Below are positions 2,412 through 35,012 of a stretch of DNA of 64,000 bases, piece by piece; the stretch's first letter is position 1; every line of letters begins with the position of its first letter. Location of the stretch: IMG/VR virus record IMGVR_UViG_3300006880_000001, positions 1 through 64,000 of that record; one strand, given 5' to 3'. Position numbers and translations under genes: made by a program. Origin of the DNA: a virus. The notes under the pieces are model-generated. The model had not been told where the DNA came from and did no database searches. It was given only the letters and a program-made list of their open reading frames with translations.

Positions 2412-3596
2412 TTACCGACTGGCGCGGAGGAGCAGGATCGCCAACCCACCGACGAGTACGACACCGCCGAAGATGGCCGGGGGTGTTCGGTACCACGGCG
2501 GGGTCGGTGTCGGTGGGGGCTGGTCGGGTGCAATCGTCACCGGCGCCAGGACTGGCTTGTTGAGCGTGCGGCAGCCCTGGCTCAGGACCGTCGACACGGC
2601 CAGGGTCGAGGCGGCGATGGCCGGATTCGGGGACGACGAGCCCGCCGATACGGCCATCTGGCCTGCGGAGGATTCGTACTGGCGGCAGATGAGGCGTGTG
2701 AGGCGATCGGCCTGGCGTCCGATCCAGTCGACGCTCTCGGTGAACCGCTGCCACGTCGACTTCGGGAGTCGCTGCAGGATGATCGTCGCCGATGTCATCG
2801 AGTTCATGCGTGCGGACACGCCCCAGGTGAAGTCCTGGTTCTCGAACTCGACGGGCTCGGCGCAGACCGGTTGGCCATCGGGCCAGTCCCCTCCGGGGCA
2901 TGCCCGACACCATTGGCCGCATGCCCATAGGGTGTAGATGTCCTTGACGGGCACCTTGCCGCCGAAGACATCGGGCGAGAGGTAGTAGCCGCCCCGCGCC
3001 ATGAAGCGTCCGACGCCGCCCGGCTTCGACAGCTCGTCGGCCGTGGGTTGGGGCTGGGCGGTGAAGCCCTTGTAGCGGAGGACGAACTTGCCCGGGAACG
3101 CCTTCAGGAACTCGTTCAGCGACAGCGTCTGGTAGGTCTTCGGTGTGGGGATGCTCGCCGCGGTGGTGCCCGGGATCTGGGCGGGGCGCGCGGTGATGCC
3201 ACCCGGCCCGGCGGGGATCTGGCGGTTCGCTGCGGCCGCGAAGAGGCGCCTCGACACATCGGCCCAGGCGTAGCCGAGCTGCCGGAACTGGTCTGGGTGG
3301 AGCGTGAACGTGCGCTCGATCGGCTTGTTGAGGTCCTTGCCCCGGAAGTCGAACACCGTGAACAGGAACGGCGGTGCCGCGGTCGCGCCCTTGCCGAAGT
3401 AGATCTGGATCGTCGCGGGCGGGAACCGCGCGTAGTAGCCGTAGTTCTGGTACTGGCCCTTGGCCAGCGCCGCGCAGTCCACGCTGCCGCAGTTGGGCAG
3501 CCGCGTGGCGACGTCGCGCATCTCGGCGAGCTGCCGCAGGAAGGCAGCCCGGTCCTCGGCCGAGACCGGCTGCCCGAGACCAGAGAGGTTCACCAT
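2412..3596 (-). CDS. Cys-rich putative virion membrane protein with C-terminal TM anchor
   Basis: Leaderless start (TACAAT-N6-ATG), N-terminal LSGLG, Cys pairs, Pro linker, TM helix and basic end. Confidence 0.7.
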   Translation of the reverse strand: MVNLSGLGQPVSAEDRAAFLRQLAEMRDVATRLPNCGSVDCAALAKGQYQNYGYYARFPPATIQIYFGKGATAAPPFLFTVFDFRGKDLNKPIERTFTLHPDQFRQLGYAWADVSRRLFAAAANRQIPAGPGGITARPAQIPGTTAASIPTPKTYQTLSLNEFLKAFPGKFVLRYKGFTAQPQPTADELSKPGGVGRFMARGGYYLSPDVFGGKVPVKDIYTLWACGQWCRACPGGDWPDGQPVCAEPVEFENQDFTWGVSARMNSMTSATIILQRLPKSTWQRFTESVDWIGRQADRLTRLICRQYESSAGQMAVSAGSSSPNPAIAASTLAVSTVLSQGCRTLNKPVLAPVTIAPDQPPPTPTPPWYRTPPAIFGGVVLVGGLAILLLRASR

Positions 3597-4045: not shown

Positions 4046-4648
4046 CTACTCCAAGTCGCAGGGGAAGGTACCCTGGCAGGGCAGGGCTGCCGCCTTCTGG
4101 CGCTCGCGGTCCTCGGCAGCGATGCGCTCGCGCGCCTGCGCAAGTCGAACCGGGTCCTTCACCTGTTGCGTCCATATCACGCTCAGGCGCTCCCGTTCGG
4201 CTGGGGTCAGCGGCGGAAGCCGCCCGTCCGTCGACGACGGTACGCCCCACTCTCTCCGGGCGAGTTCGTCGGCCCGCCGAGCCATCAGGAGCTCGCCGTC
4301 CGAACGCCCTGCGGGGGTGCTGCTCTCACGGGGGACCTTGCGAGGTTCCGCCAAATCCTCGATCGGAACCACGATGACGACCCTGACGTCGTCCAACACC
4401 GTGAGGGTGGGCTTGGTGCCGGAATAGGGACAGACGCGGAACCAGTCGACGGTTCTTCGTTGTACGCAGGCCAGCGCGGTGTGGACCAAATTCGGGAGGT
4501 CGCCGCCGTGACCTCTGCCGAAGCAGCGTGACCGCCGCATCCCAGGACGCCAATGCGCGGCGGGAATGACGGCATAGCGTACGTCGTGGGCGAGGGTGAG
4601 GGGCGTGACGGCTATTGGCGTCCGGTCGTTGGCGAGGTCGAAGTTCAT
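4046..4648 (-). CDS. hypothetical protein
   Basis: ATGA overlap with the recombinase stop; AAGGAG RBS. Confidence 0.65.
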   Translation of the reverse strand: MNFDLANDRTPIAVTPLTLAHDVRYAVIPAAHWRPGMRRSRCFGRGHGGDLPNLVHTALACVQRRTVDWFRVCPYSGTKPTLTVLDDVRVVIVVPIEDLAEPRKVPRESSTPAGRSDGELLMARRADELARREWGVPSSTDGRLPPLTPAERERLSVIWTQQVKDPVRLAQARERIAAEDRERQKAAALPCQGTFPCDLE

Positions 4649-5520
4649 TTCGTCTCCTTGCGTCGACGCGCCGTGATGACTTCGGCGACATCGCCGCCGC
4701 GTGCGTGGCGGTCGTAGCGTTGGGTGGTCTTCGGGTCCCGGTGATGGACGGCGCCCTGGACCTGGCGGTCCGGCAGGCCAGCGTCGTAGGCCTCGGTGAT
4801 GAAGGCGACGCGGAAGCAGTGCGGATGGAAGCGATGGCCGACGGCGGCGGCGTAGCGGCTGACGATCTTGTTGATCGTGCCTTCGTGCATGGATGCGTCT
4901 TGGGGGCCCCGCGCCGGGAAGAGAAACGTCGACGGGGGCGCCACCGCCAGCCAGGCCTGGACCGCGGCGAGGGTGACGGCGGGCAGCGCCGCGACTTCCG
5001 TCCGCCCACCCTTGACCGTCACGGTCAGTTGGTTGCCTTGGAGGTGGCGGCGGCGGGCGGTGGCGATCGAGGCTCGCCGCAGGCCAACGTCGTAGAGGAG
5101 GCGCAGGATCGCGGTGTCGCGTGGCGAGCGCTCCGCCGCGGCGATCATCGCCACCGCGACCTCGTTGGGGATGATCTCCGTGGTGCCGGTCGTGGACGCC
5201 TCGGGCCGTGGCAACACCTTCGCGAAGAAGGGGTTGGCCGTGACCACCCCGGTGCGGAACAGGATGTCGTAGATCGACGCCAGCACCGCCAGCATGCGGC
5301 GGACGCTCGAGGGGGCGTAGGTGGTGATGAGGCCGTCACGGTACAGACGTGCCTGCGCCAGGGTCGCGAACCGCGGATCGACCCGATAGTGATCGCAGAA
5401 CGTGCGCCACTTCTGGAGATCGGATCGATAGACCTCCTGCGTCTTCGGGGATCGCCGCGTGCGGATGAACTCCTCGGCGGCGTCATCGAAGACGGATCGG
5501 GGGCGGTGGACGAGCTCCAT
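4645..5520 (-). CDS. tyrosine recombinase/resolvase (XerC/D-like), intact catalytic set
   Basis: GLRR (R), KGG (K), HPHCFR (HxxR), VHH..TTQRY (H, Y). Confidence 0.92.
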   Translation of the reverse strand: MELVHRPRSVFDDAAEEFIRTRRSPKTQEVYRSDLQKWRTFCDHYRVDPRFATLAQARLYRDGLITTYAPSSVRRMLAVLASIYDILFRTGVVTANPFFAKVLPRPEASTTGTTEIIPNEVAVAMIAAAERSPRDTAILRLLYDVGLRRASIATARRRHLQGNQLTVTVKGGRTEVAALPAVTLAAVQAWLAVAPPSTFLFPARGPQDASMHEGTINKIVSRYAAAVGHRFHPHCFRVAFITEAYDAGLPDRQVQGAVHHRDPKTTQRYDRHARGGDVAEVITARRRKETK

Positions 5521-5526
5521 GGCGTG

Positions 5527-5595
5527 GCTATTATATCGGCCTAGGGTTGCCTGTCAATATAATAGCGAACTTGGCTGTTTACACTAGTGTAAACA
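5527..5595. repeat. AT-rich inverted repeats, candidate recombinase (res/att) site
   Basis: GCTATTATAT (5527-5536) / ATATAATAGC (5557-5566) inverted pair; perfect 20-bp palindrome TGTTTACACTAGTGTAAACA (5576-5595). Confidence 0.65.
5530..5557 (-). promoter_or_regulatory. consensus sigma70 promoter of the recombinase
   Basis: TTGACA-N16-TATAAT, 9 nt upstream of ATG 5520. Confidence 0.85.
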
Positions 5596-30157: not shown

Positions 30158-31188
30158 GGCTTGGCGCGGGTGAGGACGTCCACGATGCGCTCGGCGGCAC
30201 GCCCATCGCCGAATGTACCCTTACTGGTCCGCACCCGTCCCAAAAAGGACGAGACGAGCTCCGGCAGCGTCGAGATGTCTCGGACCAACTGACAGGCGCC
30301 GTCGAGGGCCTCCGGCCGTTCCGTGACGTCGCGCAGGATGAGGCACGGCCGTTCAGCGTCGGCGGCCTCCTCGATCAAGCCCCCCGAGTCGGTGATGACC
30401 ACGGCAGCGGTAGCCACGAGCTGGGCCATGGTCTCGTGGCGAACCGGCTGGAGGATGATGATGTCCGGGTGGTCTCGCACCACCGCCTCGACGGCGCGGC
30501 TGATGAGCGGATTCGGGTGTACCGACCAGAGGATCTTGAGCCGCTCGTTGGCGCACGCTCGTACGGCTTCGGCGATGAGGCGGATGCGCGGCCAATTCTC
30601 CCGACGGTGAACCGTGACCAGCGCGTAGTCGTCGCTGAGGGTCCGGCGGAGGTTCCGACACGCGTTGCGGAAGGCGTCGATGCCGGTGTTGCCCGTGATC
30701 GCGACCCGACCGAGGACGCGTTCGCGGTGGAGGTTCTGCGACGCGTGGGGCGTGGGTGCGAAGTGGAGCGTCGCGATCTGGCTGATGAGCCGCCGGTTGC
30801 CCTCCTCCGGGTACGGCCATTCGGAGTAGGTACGAAGGCCCGCTTCGACGTGCGCCACCACCGCCCCGCGGTACCACGCGGCCAACGCACCCGCGAGCGC
30901 CGTCGTGGTGTCGCCCTGAACCACCACGACGTCGGCATCGTGCTGCCTCAGGTGCATGCTGACCGCCGCGATCGCTTGCCCCAGGAGGATGTCGAGCCCC
31001 GTATCGGAGGTGCGATCGATGGGGGCCACATCGGCCGACAGCCCCGTCTCGGCCAAGTGCTTCTGCAAGAGATGCGCTTGCTGGCCGATCGCGAGCACGC
31101 GGTGTTGGACCTGGCGGGACGCCAGGACGTTGCAGATCGGCGCAAGCTTGATGAGCTCGGGCCGTGTGCCGAGAACCACGGTGATCAT
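30154..31188 (-). CDS. wecB: UDP-N-acetylglucosamine 2-epimerase (non-hydrolysing)
   Basis: GTRPELIKLAP, VQGDTTT, HVEAGLRT, PEEGNR, TGNTGID, HRREN, TDSGG, TERPE. Confidence 0.93.
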   Translation of the reverse strand: MITVVLGTRPELIKLAPICNVLASRQVQHRVLAIGQQAHLLQKHLAETGLSADVAPIDRTSDTGLDILLGQAIAAVSMHLRQHDADVVVVQGDTTTALAGALAAWYRGAVVAHVEAGLRTYSEWPYPEEGNRRLISQIATLHFAPTPHASQNLHRERVLGRVAITGNTGIDAFRNACRNLRRTLSDDYALVTVHRRENWPRIRLIAEAVRACANERLKILWSVHPNPLISRAVEAVVRDHPDIIILQPVRHETMAQLVATAAVVITDSGGLIEEAADAERPCLILRDVTERPEALDGACQLVRDISTLPELVSSFLGRVRTSKGTFGDGRAAERIVDVLTRAKP

Positions 31189-31238
31189 GGTGGCGCCTCC
31201 ACCAATACCACACGGAGTTCCGTATCCGTGCTAACTGG

Positions 31239-32057
31239 ATGGACATGGAACGGCCTCCGCTGCTCTGCGCTGCGATGCCTACCCGGAACGACCGCCTGCC
31301 GCTCCTACCTTGGGCCATCCGCCAATGGCTCGCGCAGACCGAAGACGTCCGTGGCAGCGCCTTCTGCCAACTCTGGATCGGCGTCGACGGAGGGTGGTCG
31401 GACGCCGCGCGGGTCACCACGTGGTTGACCCAGCAGCTGCACGGTCTACCGCCCGAAGTACTCATCGTCCCCATCCCGTTCGCAGGTGCGATCGGTGGGA
31501 AGCGCAACCTCCTCCTGGAGGAGATCGACCGCGGAACGGAGCGCCTCGGCCTGAAGGTCTGGATCCTCACCTGGGACGACGACGACTTCCATGGACCGAA
31601 CCGCCTCCTCTACACCACCCGCGCGATCCAGAAGGACCGCAACGTGACCGTCCTCGGCACGCGCATCATGAAGATCTTCCTGCTCCCGCGCGGTGAGGCG
31701 TGGCGCTATGAGTACCCTGCGGGGCGCCGCCCGGAGTACTACGTCGGCGGCACCATGGCGTTCCGGATCGACGAATGGCGGGCAGAGCCATACAGCGGGG
31801 CGGCCAAGACCGGCGAGGATGCCACCTGGGTCGTGAACCGCATCATGGCGGGCGCGGTCCACGCAGAGATTCCCCACGTCGGCGACGAGTACGTCGCCAT
31901 CTACCACACCGGCAACACGGCCTCACAGCTCCCACCCGAAGACGGCTTCCGAGATCCCTGGTTCGAACCGACGACGCTGGCGCCTTCCTTCTGGGCCGCC
32001 TGGCCGGAGATCGACGCGGCCTACCAGGCATTTCGAGGAACGGCCACCGCACCGTGA
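31239..32057 (+). CDS. GT2-like glycosyltransferase
   Basis: MPTRNDR, IGGKRN, WDDDD, GED. Confidence 0.75.
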   Translation: MDMERPPLLCAAMPTRNDRLPLLPWAIRQWLAQTEDVRGSAFCQLWIGVDGGWSDAARVTTWLTQQLHGLPPEVLIVPIPFAGAIGGKRNLLLEEIDRGTERLGLKVWILTWDDDDFHGPNRLLYTTRAIQKDRNVTVLGTRIMKIFLLPRGEAWRYEYPAGRRPEYYVGGTMAFRIDEWRAEPYSGAAKTGEDATWVVNRIMAGAVHAEIPHVGDEYVAIYHTGNTASQLPPEDGFRDPWFEPTTLAPSFWAAWPEIDAAYQAFRGTATAP

Positions 32058-32070
32058 TACTTATGGCCTG

Positions 32071-32403
32071 ATGCTGCCCAAGCCGTTGCGGTCCGGCGCC
32101 AAGCTCCACCTCTCCAACCGCTTCCGCGCCACCCTTCTGAAGGCTGTCGACGTAGCGTTTGCCATGGCGCTCGTTGACGATCCCACGCTCGAGAGGTTGC
32201 GCGCCCAGGTCACCAACCGACTTGGAGCGCGGTTACCGCTCACGGAGCGTCAGACGACACGTACGGCCCGCGTGCTGCTTGAGGCCATGTTGATCACTTT
32301 CTCCACGCACCTCGATGCAAAGGACCGGGCGGAGATGGAATCCTTCCTGGAGATGATCGAGGCGAAGAATGCGCAGGTTGCCAAGCGGAAGAGGCGCCGC
32401 TAG
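32071..32403 (+). CDS. hypothetical protein
   Basis: 110 aa helical ORF with a basic tail. Confidence 0.55.
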   Translation: MLPKPLRSGAKLHLSNRFRATLLKAVDVAFAMALVDDPTLERLRAQVTNRLGARLPLTERQTTRTARVLLEAMLITFSTHLDAKDRAEMESFLEMIEAKNAQVAKRKRRR

Positions 32404-32442
32404 ACGATCCGTAGGTCACAGCGCCGTGATACGGTTCGCGGC

Positions 32443-32607
32443 ATGATCCTGCCCTACGTTCCCGTCCTCGTCATGGTCGCTGGTCTCTTGCTGTACCTGC
32501 TGAGCAGCAACGCGAAGGCGCAGGAGCTCGGCCGGATCCTGTTCTTCGTCGGTCTGTTCTTCACGGTCGGTGTCATCGGCGGTGCGAAGGTCCTGACCCT
32601 CAAGTAG
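32443..32607 (+). CDS. small two-TM membrane protein (54 aa)
   Basis: Read manually: MILPYVPVLVMVAGLLLYLLSSNAKAQELGRILFFVGLFF...; leaderless after a GTCAC-N10-TACGGT promoter. Confidence 0.7.
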   Translation: MILPYVPVLVMVAGLLLYLLSSNAKAQELGRILFFVGLFFTVGVIGGAKVLTLK

Positions 32608-32634
32608 TTCACCGACGGTGATCGATCACGGCCC

Positions 32635-32663
32635 TTGACACGCCTACATGGTGTCGCTAGGTT
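32635..32663 (+). promoter_or_regulatory. sigma70 promoter of the Pth2/tRNA-like operon
   Basis: TTGACA-N17-TAGGTT, 7 nt upstream of ATG 32671. Confidence 0.7.
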
Positions 32664-33025
32664 CGGTGGCATGTCCCATTGACCGTCAGCCGCCCGCGGC
32701 CACGTCACTCGCCCACTACGTCGTCATCCGCGCTGACCTCCCCCTCGGGTTGAAGGTCGCCAACACAGTCCACGCAGCTGGGCTATCCGCCTCCTGGCGA
32801 GACGGTCCGCTGCCCACCGACACCATCGCCGTGGCTCTCGCCGCGCGTGATGAGAGCCACCTCCACGAGCTCTCCGTGAAGCTCGCGGAGCGCAACATCC
32901 TCCACCACCCTGTCCGTGAGTCCGACGGACCCTACGCGGGGCAGTGGATGGCCATCGGCCTCGAGCCGACCGCCGACCGCGACGCGGTCAGAAAGGTGGT
33001 CTCGCACCTACCGCTCGTGCGGTGA
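32648..33025 (+). CDS. peptidyl-tRNA hydrolase type 2-like protein (PTH2/PTRHD1-like); true start probably the out-of-frame ATG 32671
   Basis: YVVIRADL..G.KVAN.VHAA, VALAARDE, AIGLEP, VVSHLPL. Confidence 0.75.
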   Translation: MVSLGSVACPIDRQPPAATSLAHYVVIRADLPLGLKVANTVHAAGLSASWRDGPLPTDTIAVALAARDESHLHELSVKLAERNILHHPVRESDGPYAGQWMAIGLEPTADRDAVRKVVSHLPLVR

Positions 33026-33033
33026 ACGTTCCT

Positions 33034-33108
33034 GGGGTCGTGGTGTACGCACGCACGCGCCGTCCTCGCGCCGGCGAAGACCTGGCCTGCCGCCAGGCGA
33101 CCCCACCA
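33034..33108 (+). tRNA. non-canonical tRNA-like gene 1 (9-nt anticodon loop UCCUCGCGC)
   Basis: GGGGTCG/CGACCCC acceptor + A-CCA; GTGT/GCAC D stem; CGCCG/CGGCG anticodon stem; CCTGG/CCAGG T stem with 7-nt loop lacking TTC. Confidence 0.75.
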
Positions 33109-33109
33109 A

Positions 33110-33186
33110 GCGCGCTTAGCTCAGCAGCAGAGCACCGAGCGTAATGGACTCGGGTGTCGGGGGTGCGACTCCCTCAGCGCGCGCCA
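33110..33186 (+). tRNA. non-canonical tRNA-like gene 2 (9-nt anticodon loop CGUAAUGGA)
   Basis: GCGCGCT/AGCGCGC acceptor + G-CCA; TA-GCTC/GAGC D arm; CCGAG/CTCGG stem; GGGGG/CCCTC T stem with TGCGACT loop. Confidence 0.85.
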
Positions 33187-33218
33187 GCTGTCACCCTGTT
33201 GTGGTAACGATGCGGGGT

Positions 33219-33470
33219 ATGAGCGATCGATCCAGCGCCGACATCTTCGCGACGATGTTCCTGCTGCTCGACTCGGACAAGACCAAGGAGCAGATCGCCC
33301 AGGAGCTGTGGAAGAAGACATTCGAGTTTGACTTCTCATGCCAGCAGCTCGAGATCGACGACACGTTGGTGCGGTTTGGCCTCGCCAGAAAGGTGAAGCG
33401 CCCCGACTACCCCGACGAGACCATCACCCAGTACCGGCGCGCGGACGGTCGGCGCTGGGATGATCCGTAG
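33219..33470 (+). CDS. hypothetical protein
   Basis: MSDRSSADIF..., GTCAC-N10-TA promoter upstream. Confidence 0.6.
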   Translation: MSDRSSADIFATMFLLLDSDKTKEQIAQELWKKTFEFDFSCQQLEIDDTLVRFGLARKVKRPDYPDETITQYRRADGRRWDDP

Positions 33471-33471
33471 G

Positions 33472-34404
33472 TCACCAGGACCCGATCGCGACCTTCGCCC
33501 GCTCGACGTAGGAGGTGATCCAGGCCGCCTCCTCGGGGAAGTAGATGGCCGGGACGTCGAAGCACCACCAGGGTCTCTCGCCGGGGTAGAAGCGGCAGGG
33601 GATGAAGTCGATCGGCGCCGACGGCGGGTCCCCACGGCCAGGGATCCAGCCATCCGCGAGGAGCAGGAGCCCCCGGTGCATGTGCTCGTGGGGCGTTAGC
33701 TGTGGAGCGTCGATGGGGTCGACCAGGTAGAGATCTCCCTGCCGCCAGACCCCCGTCGAGACCTCCTCCACGACACCCTGGGCGCGGGGATGGGCGAGGA
33801 AGGCATACGACCCGATCGTTTCGTCGAGGTCGGTGTAGTTGGTCCGGGAGGGCAGGTACGGCGCGATCGTGTCGACCAGGGCGTCGTGGGGGATTCCGTA
33901 GTTGAGGGGGAGCATGTAGCGCCAGATCTCGGCGGTGGCCCCCGAGTAGCACATCGGGAACCGGACCTCACCGGGGCGCATGACCGCCGGCGGCCTTGGT
34001 GGCACGGGCGCCGCGGGCTGCATCCAGATGTCCCCGAGGCCGCGGTAGACGATGAAGTCCTCGCGGCGATCGAAGAAGGTCCGCGACAGGGGGATCATGT
34101 CCACGTCGGAGGTCAGGAGGAAGTCCTCGGGGTCGAGGAAGGGCTCGCAAGCGGCGACCAGCCGCGCACAGCGCATCGTGTTGGCGATGCCGAGCGGGGC
34201 CACCGCGTCGATGATGCTGGTGGTGGAACCCGCGAGCGCGAGCTCGGCGCGCACGAGATCGCCGAACGGCGTGTCCCAGCCCTCGGCGTGGAGGTACACC
34301 AACGCCTTGTAGCCGAGACGGCGCCACAGGCGGACGACCAGGGGGAGGTAGATGGCGTAGGTGGGGGCAGCGTCGCAGGCGAGGACGATGTAGCGTTGCT
34401 TCAT
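33472..34404 (-). CDS. putative glycosyltransferase (DxD)
   Basis: ARL, LLTSDVDMIPL, PMCY; glyco-cluster context. Confidence 0.6.
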   Translation of the reverse strand: MKQRYIVLACDAAPTYAIYLPLVVRLWRRLGYKALVYLHAEGWDTPFGDLVRAELALAGSTTSIIDAVAPLGIANTMRCARLVAACEPFLDPEDFLLTSDVDMIPLSRTFFDRREDFIVYRGLGDIWMQPAAPVPPRPPAVMRPGEVRFPMCYSGATAEIWRYMLPLNYGIPHDALVDTIAPYLPSRTNYTDLDETIGSYAFLAHPRAQGVVEEVSTGVWRQGDLYLVDPIDAPQLTPHEHMHRGLLLLADGWIPGRGDPPSAPIDFIPCRFYPGERPWWCFDVPAIYFPEEAAWITSYVERAKVAIGSW

Positions 34405-35012
34405 CTCGGGGGCACCAGGTCGCGGAGGAAGGGATGCCACGAACGCCAGCTCTCTTTGTGCTCGGGGAAGGCGCGCGTGATGGTCTCGTGGTAGCGGTCG
34501 AGCTCGTCGAGGTTGACGAACCGCTCGCGCCAGAGGACGGCGGTGTGGGGTGTGGCGTGGGTGAAGACCGAACGGCGCCAGTCGCCCTGGACGGCGTCGC
34601 GGTACGACGGCTCCTCGAAGTCGTGGGCGACGACGATGGGCGCCCGGGTTTGACTGGTGACGAACGCGATGGTGTCGACCCGGGCGTCGACGGTGACCGA
34701 GTCGTCGATGAAGACGACGTCGTAGTCGTGGTAGTGGAGGAACGGTGCGGCGAGCTTCGCCATGGGCACCCCCTCCTCGTAGTGGAGGCGGCAACCCGGC
34801 CACGGATCGGTGAAGAACTCTCGGCGGACCGCCTCGTAGTACCAGGCCTCGCCGTTCTCGAGGACGTCCAGATGCGTGAGGTCGGGGAAGACCACGTCGT
34901 CCTGGAACATCGGTGAGCTGAAGCATCCCGATCCGAGCTCGAGAAGCCGCCGGATCGGACGGAGCTGCGCTAGAAGGACGAAGACCGGGATGTGCGATCC
35001 GGAGGCGATCAT
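34401..35012 (-). CDS. methyltransferase-like protein
   Basis: LLELGSGCFSS, DVVFIDD, VVAHD. Confidence 0.65.
   Translation of the reverse strand: MIASGSHIPVFVLLAQLRPIRRLLELGSGCFSSPMFQDDVVFPDLTHLDVLENGEAWYYEAVRREFFTDPWPGCRLHYEEGVPMAKLAAPFLHYHDYDVVFIDDSVTVDARVDTIAFVTSQTRAPIVVAHDFEEPSYRDAVQGDWRRSVFTHATPHTAVLWRERFVNLDELDRYHETITRAFPEHKESWRSWHPFLRDLVPPR

Follow-up and report, generated by a model that had tools for sequence, protein, structure and literature searches.

How is a gene translated when the ATG behind its promoter opens a frame of only three codons? This question is raised by the gene of a Pth2-like protein in the virus record IMGVR_UViG_3300006880_000001. The stretch analysed here, termed the window, comprises the first 64 kb (64,000 nucleotides, nt) of this record, which is 129,359 bp long, possesses direct terminal repeats and has a G+C content of about 67%. 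The Pth2-like frame is offset from the ATG in question, and two genes with the shape of transfer RNAs (tRNAs) are arranged in tandem directly 3' of it, the second of which presents four bases in an enlarged anticodon loop that are complementary to the site where both frames meet. The most economical reading of this arrangement, and in our judgement a probable one on the grounds of sequence and comparison, is four-base decoding: the phage tRNA would take CAUU as a single codon, and access to the Pth2-like gene would be gated by it. The features involved are the following:

32635..32663, plus strand: promoter-like site with the -35 hexamer TTGACA (32635-32640), a 17-nt spacer and the -10 hexamer TAGGTT (32658-32663)
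32671..32682, plus strand: leader mini open reading frame (ORF), ATG TCC CAT TGA, encoding M-S-H-stop; a +1 shift from its frame leads into the Pth2-like frame
32677..32680, plus strand: proposed four-base codon CAUU, followed by a G (32681) that can pair with loop position 3 of the tRNA
32681..33025, plus strand: Pth2-like coding part after the shift, DRQPPAATSLAHYVVIRADLP..., with the stop TGA at 33023-33025
33110..33186, plus strand: candidate quadruplet-decoding tRNA (gene 2) with the loop CGUAAUGGA at 33140-33148, the four-base anticodon AAUG at 33143-33146 and an encoded CCA

The frame architecture is directly readable and agrees with the initial annotation. The open Pth2-like frame spans 32648-33025 and is offset by +1 relative to ATG 32671, from which the triplets ATG TCC CAT TGA terminate after M-S-H. 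Taking CATT at 32677-32680 as one step leads into the Pth2 frame and gives a protein of 117 amino acids (aa), MSHDRQPPAATSLAHYVV..., in which no second CATT is read. The starts that do lie in the Pth2-like frame, ATG 32648, GTG 32651 and GTG 32666, are all situated within the span of the promoter hexamers or 2 nt behind them, again as annotated.

Out-of-frame leaders and covarying tRNAs in homologous loci

Few close relatives of the Pth2-like protein were obtained by word search, and a scan of viral contigs with the single protein found no relative. An alignment-based scan of viral contigs yielded 52 loci with 36-55% identity, located on contigs of 4-619 kb with 37-70% G+C, and the comparison was made across 50 loci, i.e. 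the window and the 49 viral contigs in which the conserved domain start HY(V/C)I(V/I)R could be placed. An ATG-started leader in the frame that needs a +1 shift is present in 48 of the 50 loci, as compared to 16 of 50 in which a control frame offers one. Moreover, the gene frame is devoid of any ATG, GTG or TTG between the preceding stop and the HY..R motif in 24 of 50 loci. The two loci without such a leader, L023 and L026, constitute an identical pair with a long ordinary in-frame upstream ORF. Both expectations that had been attached to an alignment of homologues, a conserved out-of-frame ATG and covariation between codon and loop, are thus borne out.

In their own frame the leaders are related as peptides (MSH, MTH, MH, MNSSH, MTSSH, MSSTH, MNSSL, MSSRA and others). 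The leader of L002, ATG TCG CAT TGA C, differs from that of the window by a single change (TCC/TCG), which leaves the leader peptide unaltered but would be non-synonymous when read in the Pth2 frame. In the window and 26 of 48 loci the leader stop begins at the fourth base of the quadruplet, often in the form U-GAC, whereas in 22 of 48 loci the matching quadruplet is located 1-18 codons before the leader stop; hence, the stop codon is not the signal. Several leaders carry the matching quadruplet two or three times. A TANNNT motif ending 4-9 nt before the leader ATG was found in 23 of 41 unique leaders, compared with 226 of 3686 (6.1%) other ATG triplets of the same loci. The conserved TTGAC that encodes part of an I/L-D-S-Q stretch was considered as a -35 box and rejected, as its distance to the gene is too variable; it is explained as NNT-GAC at the shift site.

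Three homologues deviate in other ways. In L052 (2950-3060) a -1/+2 change of frame interrupts the domain behind HYCITRTDL, and L051 (2990-3010) lacks the N-terminal third; these two are either decayed copies or instances of another kind of recoding. L050, with a CCTT leader and AAGG in a loop of 8-10 nt, fits only loosely.

Correspondence between leader quadruplet and tRNA loop was assessed within 6-kb loci by means of our own cloverleaf scan, which demanded full stems, loops of 7-9 nt and a score of at least 21. Positions 4-7 of a 9-nt loop or 3-6 of an 8-nt loop were taken as the quadruplet, and a match was defined as its reverse complement standing in frame in an ATG leader at a place where the next codon falls in the open gene frame. 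By this strict scan, an exact productive match to a tRNA with an 8- or 9-nt loop is present in 33 of 50 loci, encompassing 12 different pairs, given here as codons: CATT, GAAT, GTAG, CTAA, CCTT, GATT, GAGC, GCTT, GTAT, CTAC, GGTT and ATGC. When only the 43 unique loci are counted, an expanded-loop tRNA occurs in 31 and a match in 28, against 1.21 expected from the number of productive quadruplets per locus (Poisson-binomial P = 1.3e-41); the worst per-class chance multiplied over the 12 classes amounts to 3.6e-19. The misses among the 31 are L004, L023 and L046.

A relaxed search combined with hand curation added 15 loci (L004, L046, 12 unique loci without a strict expanded-loop tRNA, and L029, a duplicate of L028) and four pairs (CGAG, CTAG, CCAA, CCAC), which results in 48 of 50 loci and 16 pairs; since it also gives spurious matches, in which the last stem pair of an ordinary tRNA is opened, all statistics refer to the strict scan. 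The loop size of L035 is ambiguous (8-10 nt). The 48 matched tRNAs lie downstream on the same strand in 38 cases, upstream in six and on the opposite strand in four, with a median distance of 325 nt from gene end to tRNA loop, and ARAGORN reports 'Ile(AAU)', 'Leu(AAG)', 'Ser(GCU)', 'Pyl(CUA)' or four-base anticodons near the gene in most loci. L013 encodes two expanded-loop tRNAs with 8-nt loops (3419-3496 and 4241-4316) for the adjacent leader quadruplets CGAG and GCTT. Of the two functions envisaged by the initial annotation, that of a natural quadruplet-decoding tRNA is supported by the out-of-frame leaders, the loci devoid of an in-frame start and the 12-16 covarying pairs; that of a minigene or drop-off sensor is neither supported nor excluded.

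The matched RNAs have the structure of genuine tRNAs. In 29 distinct sequences compensatory changes occur in all 21 stem pairs and 95.8-100% of cells are paired, percentages that are partly given by construction because the set was picked by a scan requiring stems; this does not apply to the compensatory changes or to the conserved T loop GUUCGA. Pairing between the ends of the loop (35.7% of cells for L1:L9, 20.7% for L2:L8) does not exceed the chance level of about 37.5%, and the loop is therefore truly 9 nt long. Full cloverleaves, T loops and often an encoded CCA are kept by these tRNAs, and their bodies are closest to other expanded-loop tRNAs of any quadruplet, not to any canonical isoacceptor; as no canonical isoacceptor resembles them, the comparison of tRNA bodies gives no indication of the amino acid. 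Within the loop, U occupies the third position in 29 of the 37 unique pairs, and A the eighth in 32 of them. Position 3 can pair with the base that follows the quadruplet in 33 of 37 unique pairs, this fifth base being always a purine when position 3 is U, while A faces T in L010, L015 and L028 and G faces C in L017; L046 likewise shows the fifth complementary base. Pairing of position 8 with the base that precedes the quadruplet, by contrast, is possible in no more than five of 37.

In the window, gene 2 forms a 5-bp anticodon stem, CCGAG/CUCGG, around the 9-nt loop CGU-AAUG-GA, in which AAUG is the reverse complement of CAUU. Its identity as a tRNA with AAUG facing CAUU, as initially proposed, is corroborated by ARAGORN, which calls it at 33110-33186 as 'Ile(AAU)', and by a score of 45.4 bits against the Rfam tRNA model in a permissive run (gathering score 29); the fast Rfam run with gathering filters over the whole window gave no hits and missed it. 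The six-base pairing of CCAUUG with UAAUGG that had been emphasised is confirmed at its 3' side, where the G-U contact recurs in the family, and fails at its 5' side, where the C:G contact does not. Judged from these sequences, the extended pairing in the window is half feature (G-U) and half chance (C:G).

Protein, promoter and tRNA genes of the window

The window protein falls below the Pfam cut-off for PTH2 (PF01981) with 20.8 bits against 23 (expectation value, E, 4.7e-4), whereas the same Pfam model matches 40 of 41 family members at E<=0.01 (best E 1.2e-9), and the family profile matches the archaeal Pth2 2zv3 with an E of 3.1e-5. An AlphaFold2 (AF2) model derived from 41 sequences reached a predicted local distance difference test score (pLDDT) of 94.2 and a predicted template modelling score (pTM) of 0.86. 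Foldseek aligned this model over the whole length with 1q7s, 2zv3 and 3erj at template modelling (TM) scores of 0.70-0.75 and a probability of 1.00, and the top 12 matches in the PDB are all Pth2/Bit1 proteins (TM 0.66-0.75). According to the model, the window protein has the Pth2 alpha/beta fold. As to the residues regarded as catalytic in Pth2, RD of Pth2 faces RE in the alignment and this E, E80 of the family alignment, is invariant, while the lysine stretch GKGK of Pth2 faces a gap or variable residues. Compared to archaeal and eukaryotic Pth2, the phage family thus shares the modelled fold over the whole length but is divergent, and its members are predicted hydrolases. It comprises 741 representatives at E<=1e-10 among 1.84 billion proteins. 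The starts called for these representatives vary between the interior of the domain and a point 170 residues upstream of it, which would be expected when the true start escapes gene callers.

Regarding the promoter, reading of the sequence confirms that TTGACA-N17-TAGGTT ends 7 nt 5' of ATG 32671, which corresponds to the geometry of a leaderless messenger RNA (mRNA). A consensus promoter scan returned 0 sites because the -10 box is TAGGTT and not TATAAT-like. On both strands of the 129 kb, TTGACA-N17-TAGGTT occurs in two exact copies and TTGACA-N17-TAGGGT in one, the frequency of the exact word being far above chance for the composition of the genome; the second exact copy is located at whole-record position 87448 and the one-change copy at 96888. 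Among 10 looser promoter-like sites, four besides that of the leader have an ATG 4-9 nt downstream, consistent with the annotated use of leaderless geometry elsewhere on the element, and three of these four ATGs start ORFs of 119-291 aa. A BLASTN search with window positions 31000-35000 against deposited phage genomes gave no match.

At whole-record positions 96888-96927, TTGACA-N17-TAGGGT is located 8 nt before the ATG of a 119-aa ORF that also starts with M-S-H (ATG AGC CAT CGC...), there in frame. On the minus strand of the window, at 5520-5557, TTGACA-N16-TATAAT precedes by 9 nt the ATG 5520 of a 291-aa ORF, a candidate leaderless gene. The exact copy at 87448 (CCTTGACA..N..GCTAGGTT) precedes, within whole-record positions 87448-87907, a cluster of insert-bearing tRNA-shaped genes and a tRNA-Leu(UAA) at 87833-87907; no start codon follows the promoter word, and this promoter type therefore also drives non-coding RNAs.

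The other tRNA-shaped gene of the tandem ends 1 nt before gene 2:

33034..33108, plus strand: tRNA-like gene 1, a cloverleaf with the 9-nt loop UCCUCGCGC, the T loop CCUGCCG and an encoded CCA

Gene 1, with its non-canonical T loop and short D loop, was found by hand parsing and by our own cloverleaf scan and is not called by ARAGORN. Its loop has no matching quadruplet in the window leader, and the would-be codon GCGA is not avoided in the genome, with 302 in-frame occurrences observed against 273 expected; being that common, GCGA makes gene 1 unlikely to be an efficient decoder. Candidates for GCGA-dependent genes in the genome stay at background level, the best-looking one (88524) having been dismissed as the 3' end of an ordinary gene. 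Run X3 contains a related contig in which positions 33040-33108 are unchanged and 33040-33186 carry only one change, located in the gene 2 T loop, against seven changes in the 18-nt spacer 33197-33214. No other credible expanded-loop tRNA was detected by our own scan of the 129 kb.

A search of the genome for further CATT-dependent genes found none; the Pth2 leader is the sole CATT site that combines a short ATG leader, a near stop in the 0 frame and a long open +1 frame. A specific avoidance of CATT was rejected as evidence, as the low count follows from a general dislike of NNT-A/T contexts. Of the six in-frame CATT sites in predicted phage genes, two have a purine as the next base, a number too small for a test.

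Proposed decoding route and competing explanations

In the proposed mechanism, the strong promoter would give rise to a transcript, probably leaderless, whose 5' end would lie at AUG 32671 or beside it and which would continue through the Pth2-like gene into the two tRNAs. Ribosomes would initiate at this AUG, read UCC and then encounter CAU, where two routes are conceivable. Decoding of CAU as a triplet by tRNA-His would bring UGA into the ribosome and release the tripeptide M-S-H. Alternatively, the phage tRNA encoded at 33110-33186, provided that it is charged and accepted by the ribosome, would pair through AAUG with CAUU and through its U with the next G, so that four bases are occupied, an amino acid is inserted and GAC is read next, leading to the 117-aa protein. 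Hence, the amount of Pth2-like protein would be set solely by how actively the expanded-loop tRNA of the phage decodes the quadruplet. A five-base helix may form, and the step may be made in the A site or by repositioning in the P site.

Regarding the purpose of such a gate, a feedback or feed-forward link, in which the hydrolase acts on the esters of this tRNA or on peptidyl-tRNAs arising from its activity, is the possibility that we prefer, albeit tentatively, as we hold it to be rather less probable than its opposite. An extended version, which we regard as unlikely, makes the module a self-measuring governor of a weapon that reprogrammes translation: the tRNA would mainly impose +1 shifts at in-frame CAUU(R) of host messages by means of a five-base helix (2+5+2) and a four-base translocation, and the Pth2-like enzyme would hydrolyse the ester of this tRNA or its peptidyl-tRNAs, with an enzyme level that tracks tRNA activity because the enzyme's message is readable only by that tRNA. 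If true, this would represent a natural, evolvable 'lock and key' with at least 16 orthogonal quadruplet pairs.

Several observations weigh against four-base decoding at the Pth2 leader, in addition to the partly constructed pairing percentages mentioned above. Pairing of five bases naively predicts a +2 shift, while the frames require +1. Gene 2 is among the less canonical members of its family, with a D loop without GG, the T loop UGCGACU and a G at loop position 8 (three of 37). In-frame CATT does occur in other predicted phage genes (six sites against 12.6 expected, rank 49 of 217), and decoding must therefore be inefficient or context-dependent. The identical loci L023 and L026 encode an AAUG-loop tRNA about 3 kb away on the other strand, yet their Pth2-like ORF is an ordinary one in frame, from which it follows that the AAUG tRNA may have other uses or another target. 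Moreover, the transcription start is only predicted, as no RNA run is listed for the stretch, and the window, unlike half of its relatives, does possess in-frame starts (ATG 32648, GTG 32651, GTG 32666), which could serve read-through transcripts.

It is on these starts that the simplest competing explanation is built, namely that the protein is initiated ordinarily at 32648, 32651 or 32666 on transcripts reading through from the co-oriented upstream genes, and that M-S-H is an unrelated or merely regulatory upstream ORF on a promoter-proximal transcript whose main purpose is to supply the tRNAs. Two upstream ORFs, 32071-32403 and 32443-32607, share the strand of the Pth2-like gene, the same promoter word drives non-coding tRNA-like genes at 87448, and L046 as well as the proteins P0003 and P0004 feature an ordinary in-frame ATG beside the HY motif, all of which would suit this explanation. 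We nevertheless consider it quite unlikely, as the 24 loci devoid of any in-frame start keep the same leader design, the three starts of the window show by reading no recognisable Shine-Dalgarno sequence and crowd the promoter hexamers, and the exact, covarying tRNA complementarity would be left unexplained. That the frame is an artefact had been raised as a caveat by the initial annotation, in which a C missing from TCCC would displace an ATG that is truly in frame. Over 32300-33500, 0 differences are found in the contigs of runs X1 and X2, which may be the source of the record. Run X4 belongs to another study; its 278-nt contig, spanning 32633-32910, differs by one substitution at 32855 and contains no indel. 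Identical letters at this site in three assemblies, together with 47 other loci of the same out-of-frame design on unrelated contigs, dispose of the caveat and leave an artefact a negligible chance.

The remaining explanations accept the leader and differ in the part assigned to the tRNA. A regulatory RNA-RNA contact without decoding, in which the tRNA-like loop binds the leader in the manner of a T-box or an antisense kiss and the protein starts non-canonically, might account for a complementarity that, with 5 nt, exceeds a codon, and for gene 1 and other odd, codon-unmatched tRNA-shaped genes that accompany the module. However, without exception the matched quadruplet stands in the frame of the leader ATG and at a point from which a four-base step enters the Pth2 frame, which disfavours a kissing contact because kissing has no reason to respect frame; such a contact further offers no route to the protein in the 24 loci without a start codon, and the tRNAs retain the full cloverleaves, T loops and frequent CCA ends described above, so that we hold it to be very unlikely. 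Extremely unlikely is a programmed +1 shift at the leader stop that is independent of the tRNA, be it prfB-like or due to a 'hungry' stop, by which the gene would sense termination efficiency. The coincidence of the quadruplet's fourth base with the first base of the stop in the window and 26 of 48 loci would be in keeping with it, as would UGA-C, the weak termination context of prfB. Yet tRNA-His cannot re-pair on AUU, and neither can most P-site codons of the family (GCU, GAU, GAA, CGC, GUA and others) re-pair in the shifted frame; the three-codon leaderless ORF has no room for an internal Shine-Dalgarno sequence, the matching quadruplet is away from the stop in 22 of 48 loci, and the tracking of the site by the tRNA loop through 12-16 quadruplets would not be accounted for.

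Relation to known recoding systems

The nearest known counterparts of the phage tRNA are the +1 frameshift suppressors, such as sufD tRNA-Gly, sufA6/SufB2 tRNA-Pro and sufJ tRNA-Thr, whose classical loops mostly contain 8 nt. Suppressor and engineered quadruplet-decoding tRNAs are the subject of PMC9094753, PMC8481270 and 10.1101/2020.12.31.424971. Like the phage tRNA, they are full tRNAs with an enlarged loop and four bases complementary to the +1 site. On the other hand, they are laboratory mutants or designs that rescue accidental frameshifts, whereas the phage tRNA is wild-type and linked to one programmed site; in addition, its loop comprises 9 nt in a 2+5+2 layout as opposed to the mostly 8-nt loops of the known ones, and the pair of codon and anticodon covaries through 12-16 quadruplets.

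With prfB, the phage leader shares a short 0-frame ORF ending in UGA-C at the shift site and a product that needs a +1 shift, and possibly also the logic by which synthesis of a translation factor reports on its own substrate. The phage leader differs in being without the slippery CUU-U and without a Shine-Dalgarno stimulator, as only ATG TCC precedes the site; furthermore, 22 of 48 relatives manage without a stop next to the site, and the site is specified by a tRNA acting in trans. The analogy to prfB drawn initially is therefore only superficial, given that CAU cannot re-pair in the +1 frame and that the quadruplet is frequently not beside the stop. Slippage of the prfB type was rejected because CAU, GCU, GAU, GAA, GUA, GAG, CUA and further P-site codons of the family cannot re-pair in +1.

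In stop-codon-recoded phages with their suppressor tRNAs, as well as in the selenocysteine and pyrrolysine systems, a dedicated tRNA reads through the end of an ORF, and the phage tRNAs of this kind are virus-borne. These systems redefine a triplet stop and keep the frame, whereas the module described here would read a sense codon plus one base and change the frame, and apparently only one gene per genome depends on it. Minigenes of the lambda bar type consist of two to three codons and a stop and yield peptidyl-tRNA drop-off that Pth must clear; the M-S-H leader resembles them but differs in being joined by recoding to a Pth-like gene.

Four-base decoding as a wild-type, conserved and programmed form of gene expression is not known to us, as far as the literature search reaches. 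The searched full texts, including passages of the reviews PMC7609411 and PMC5009743, mention neither a natural phage quadruplet tRNA nor a frameshifted Pth2-like gene. If experiments confirm the proposed decoding, it would constitute a natural class of recoding beside selenocysteine, pyrrolysine and programmed frameshifting, and would offer natural, presumably efficient quadruplet tRNA/codon pairs for code expansion. The design rule of these pairs differs from that of engineered tRNAs: the loop comprises 9 nt, with U in third and a purine in eighth position, and complementarity extends to a fifth base. Mechanistic questions, i.e. how a five-base helix is reconciled with a four-base step and whether pairing or P-site repositioning sets the frame, would become testable, and with respect to phage biology the module points to a putative link between a tRNA-ester hydrolase and a frame-shifting tRNA. 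It also exposes an annotation problem, since gene callers assign arbitrary starts to the family and tRNA finders report its tRNAs as Ile(AAU), Leu(AAG), Ser(GCU) or 'Pyl'.

Besides the matched tRNAs, several homologous loci encode further tRNA genes. An odd tRNA with a 'stop' UUA anticodon is found in L009 (2480-2630), and another one with a 7-bp anticodon stem and the loop UUAAUAG, which is without a target in the leader, in L020 (3319-3395). In L010 (4077-5782) and L015 (4980-5583), the module is followed by large arrays of ordinary tRNA genes, with as many as 17 of them within 1.7 kb.

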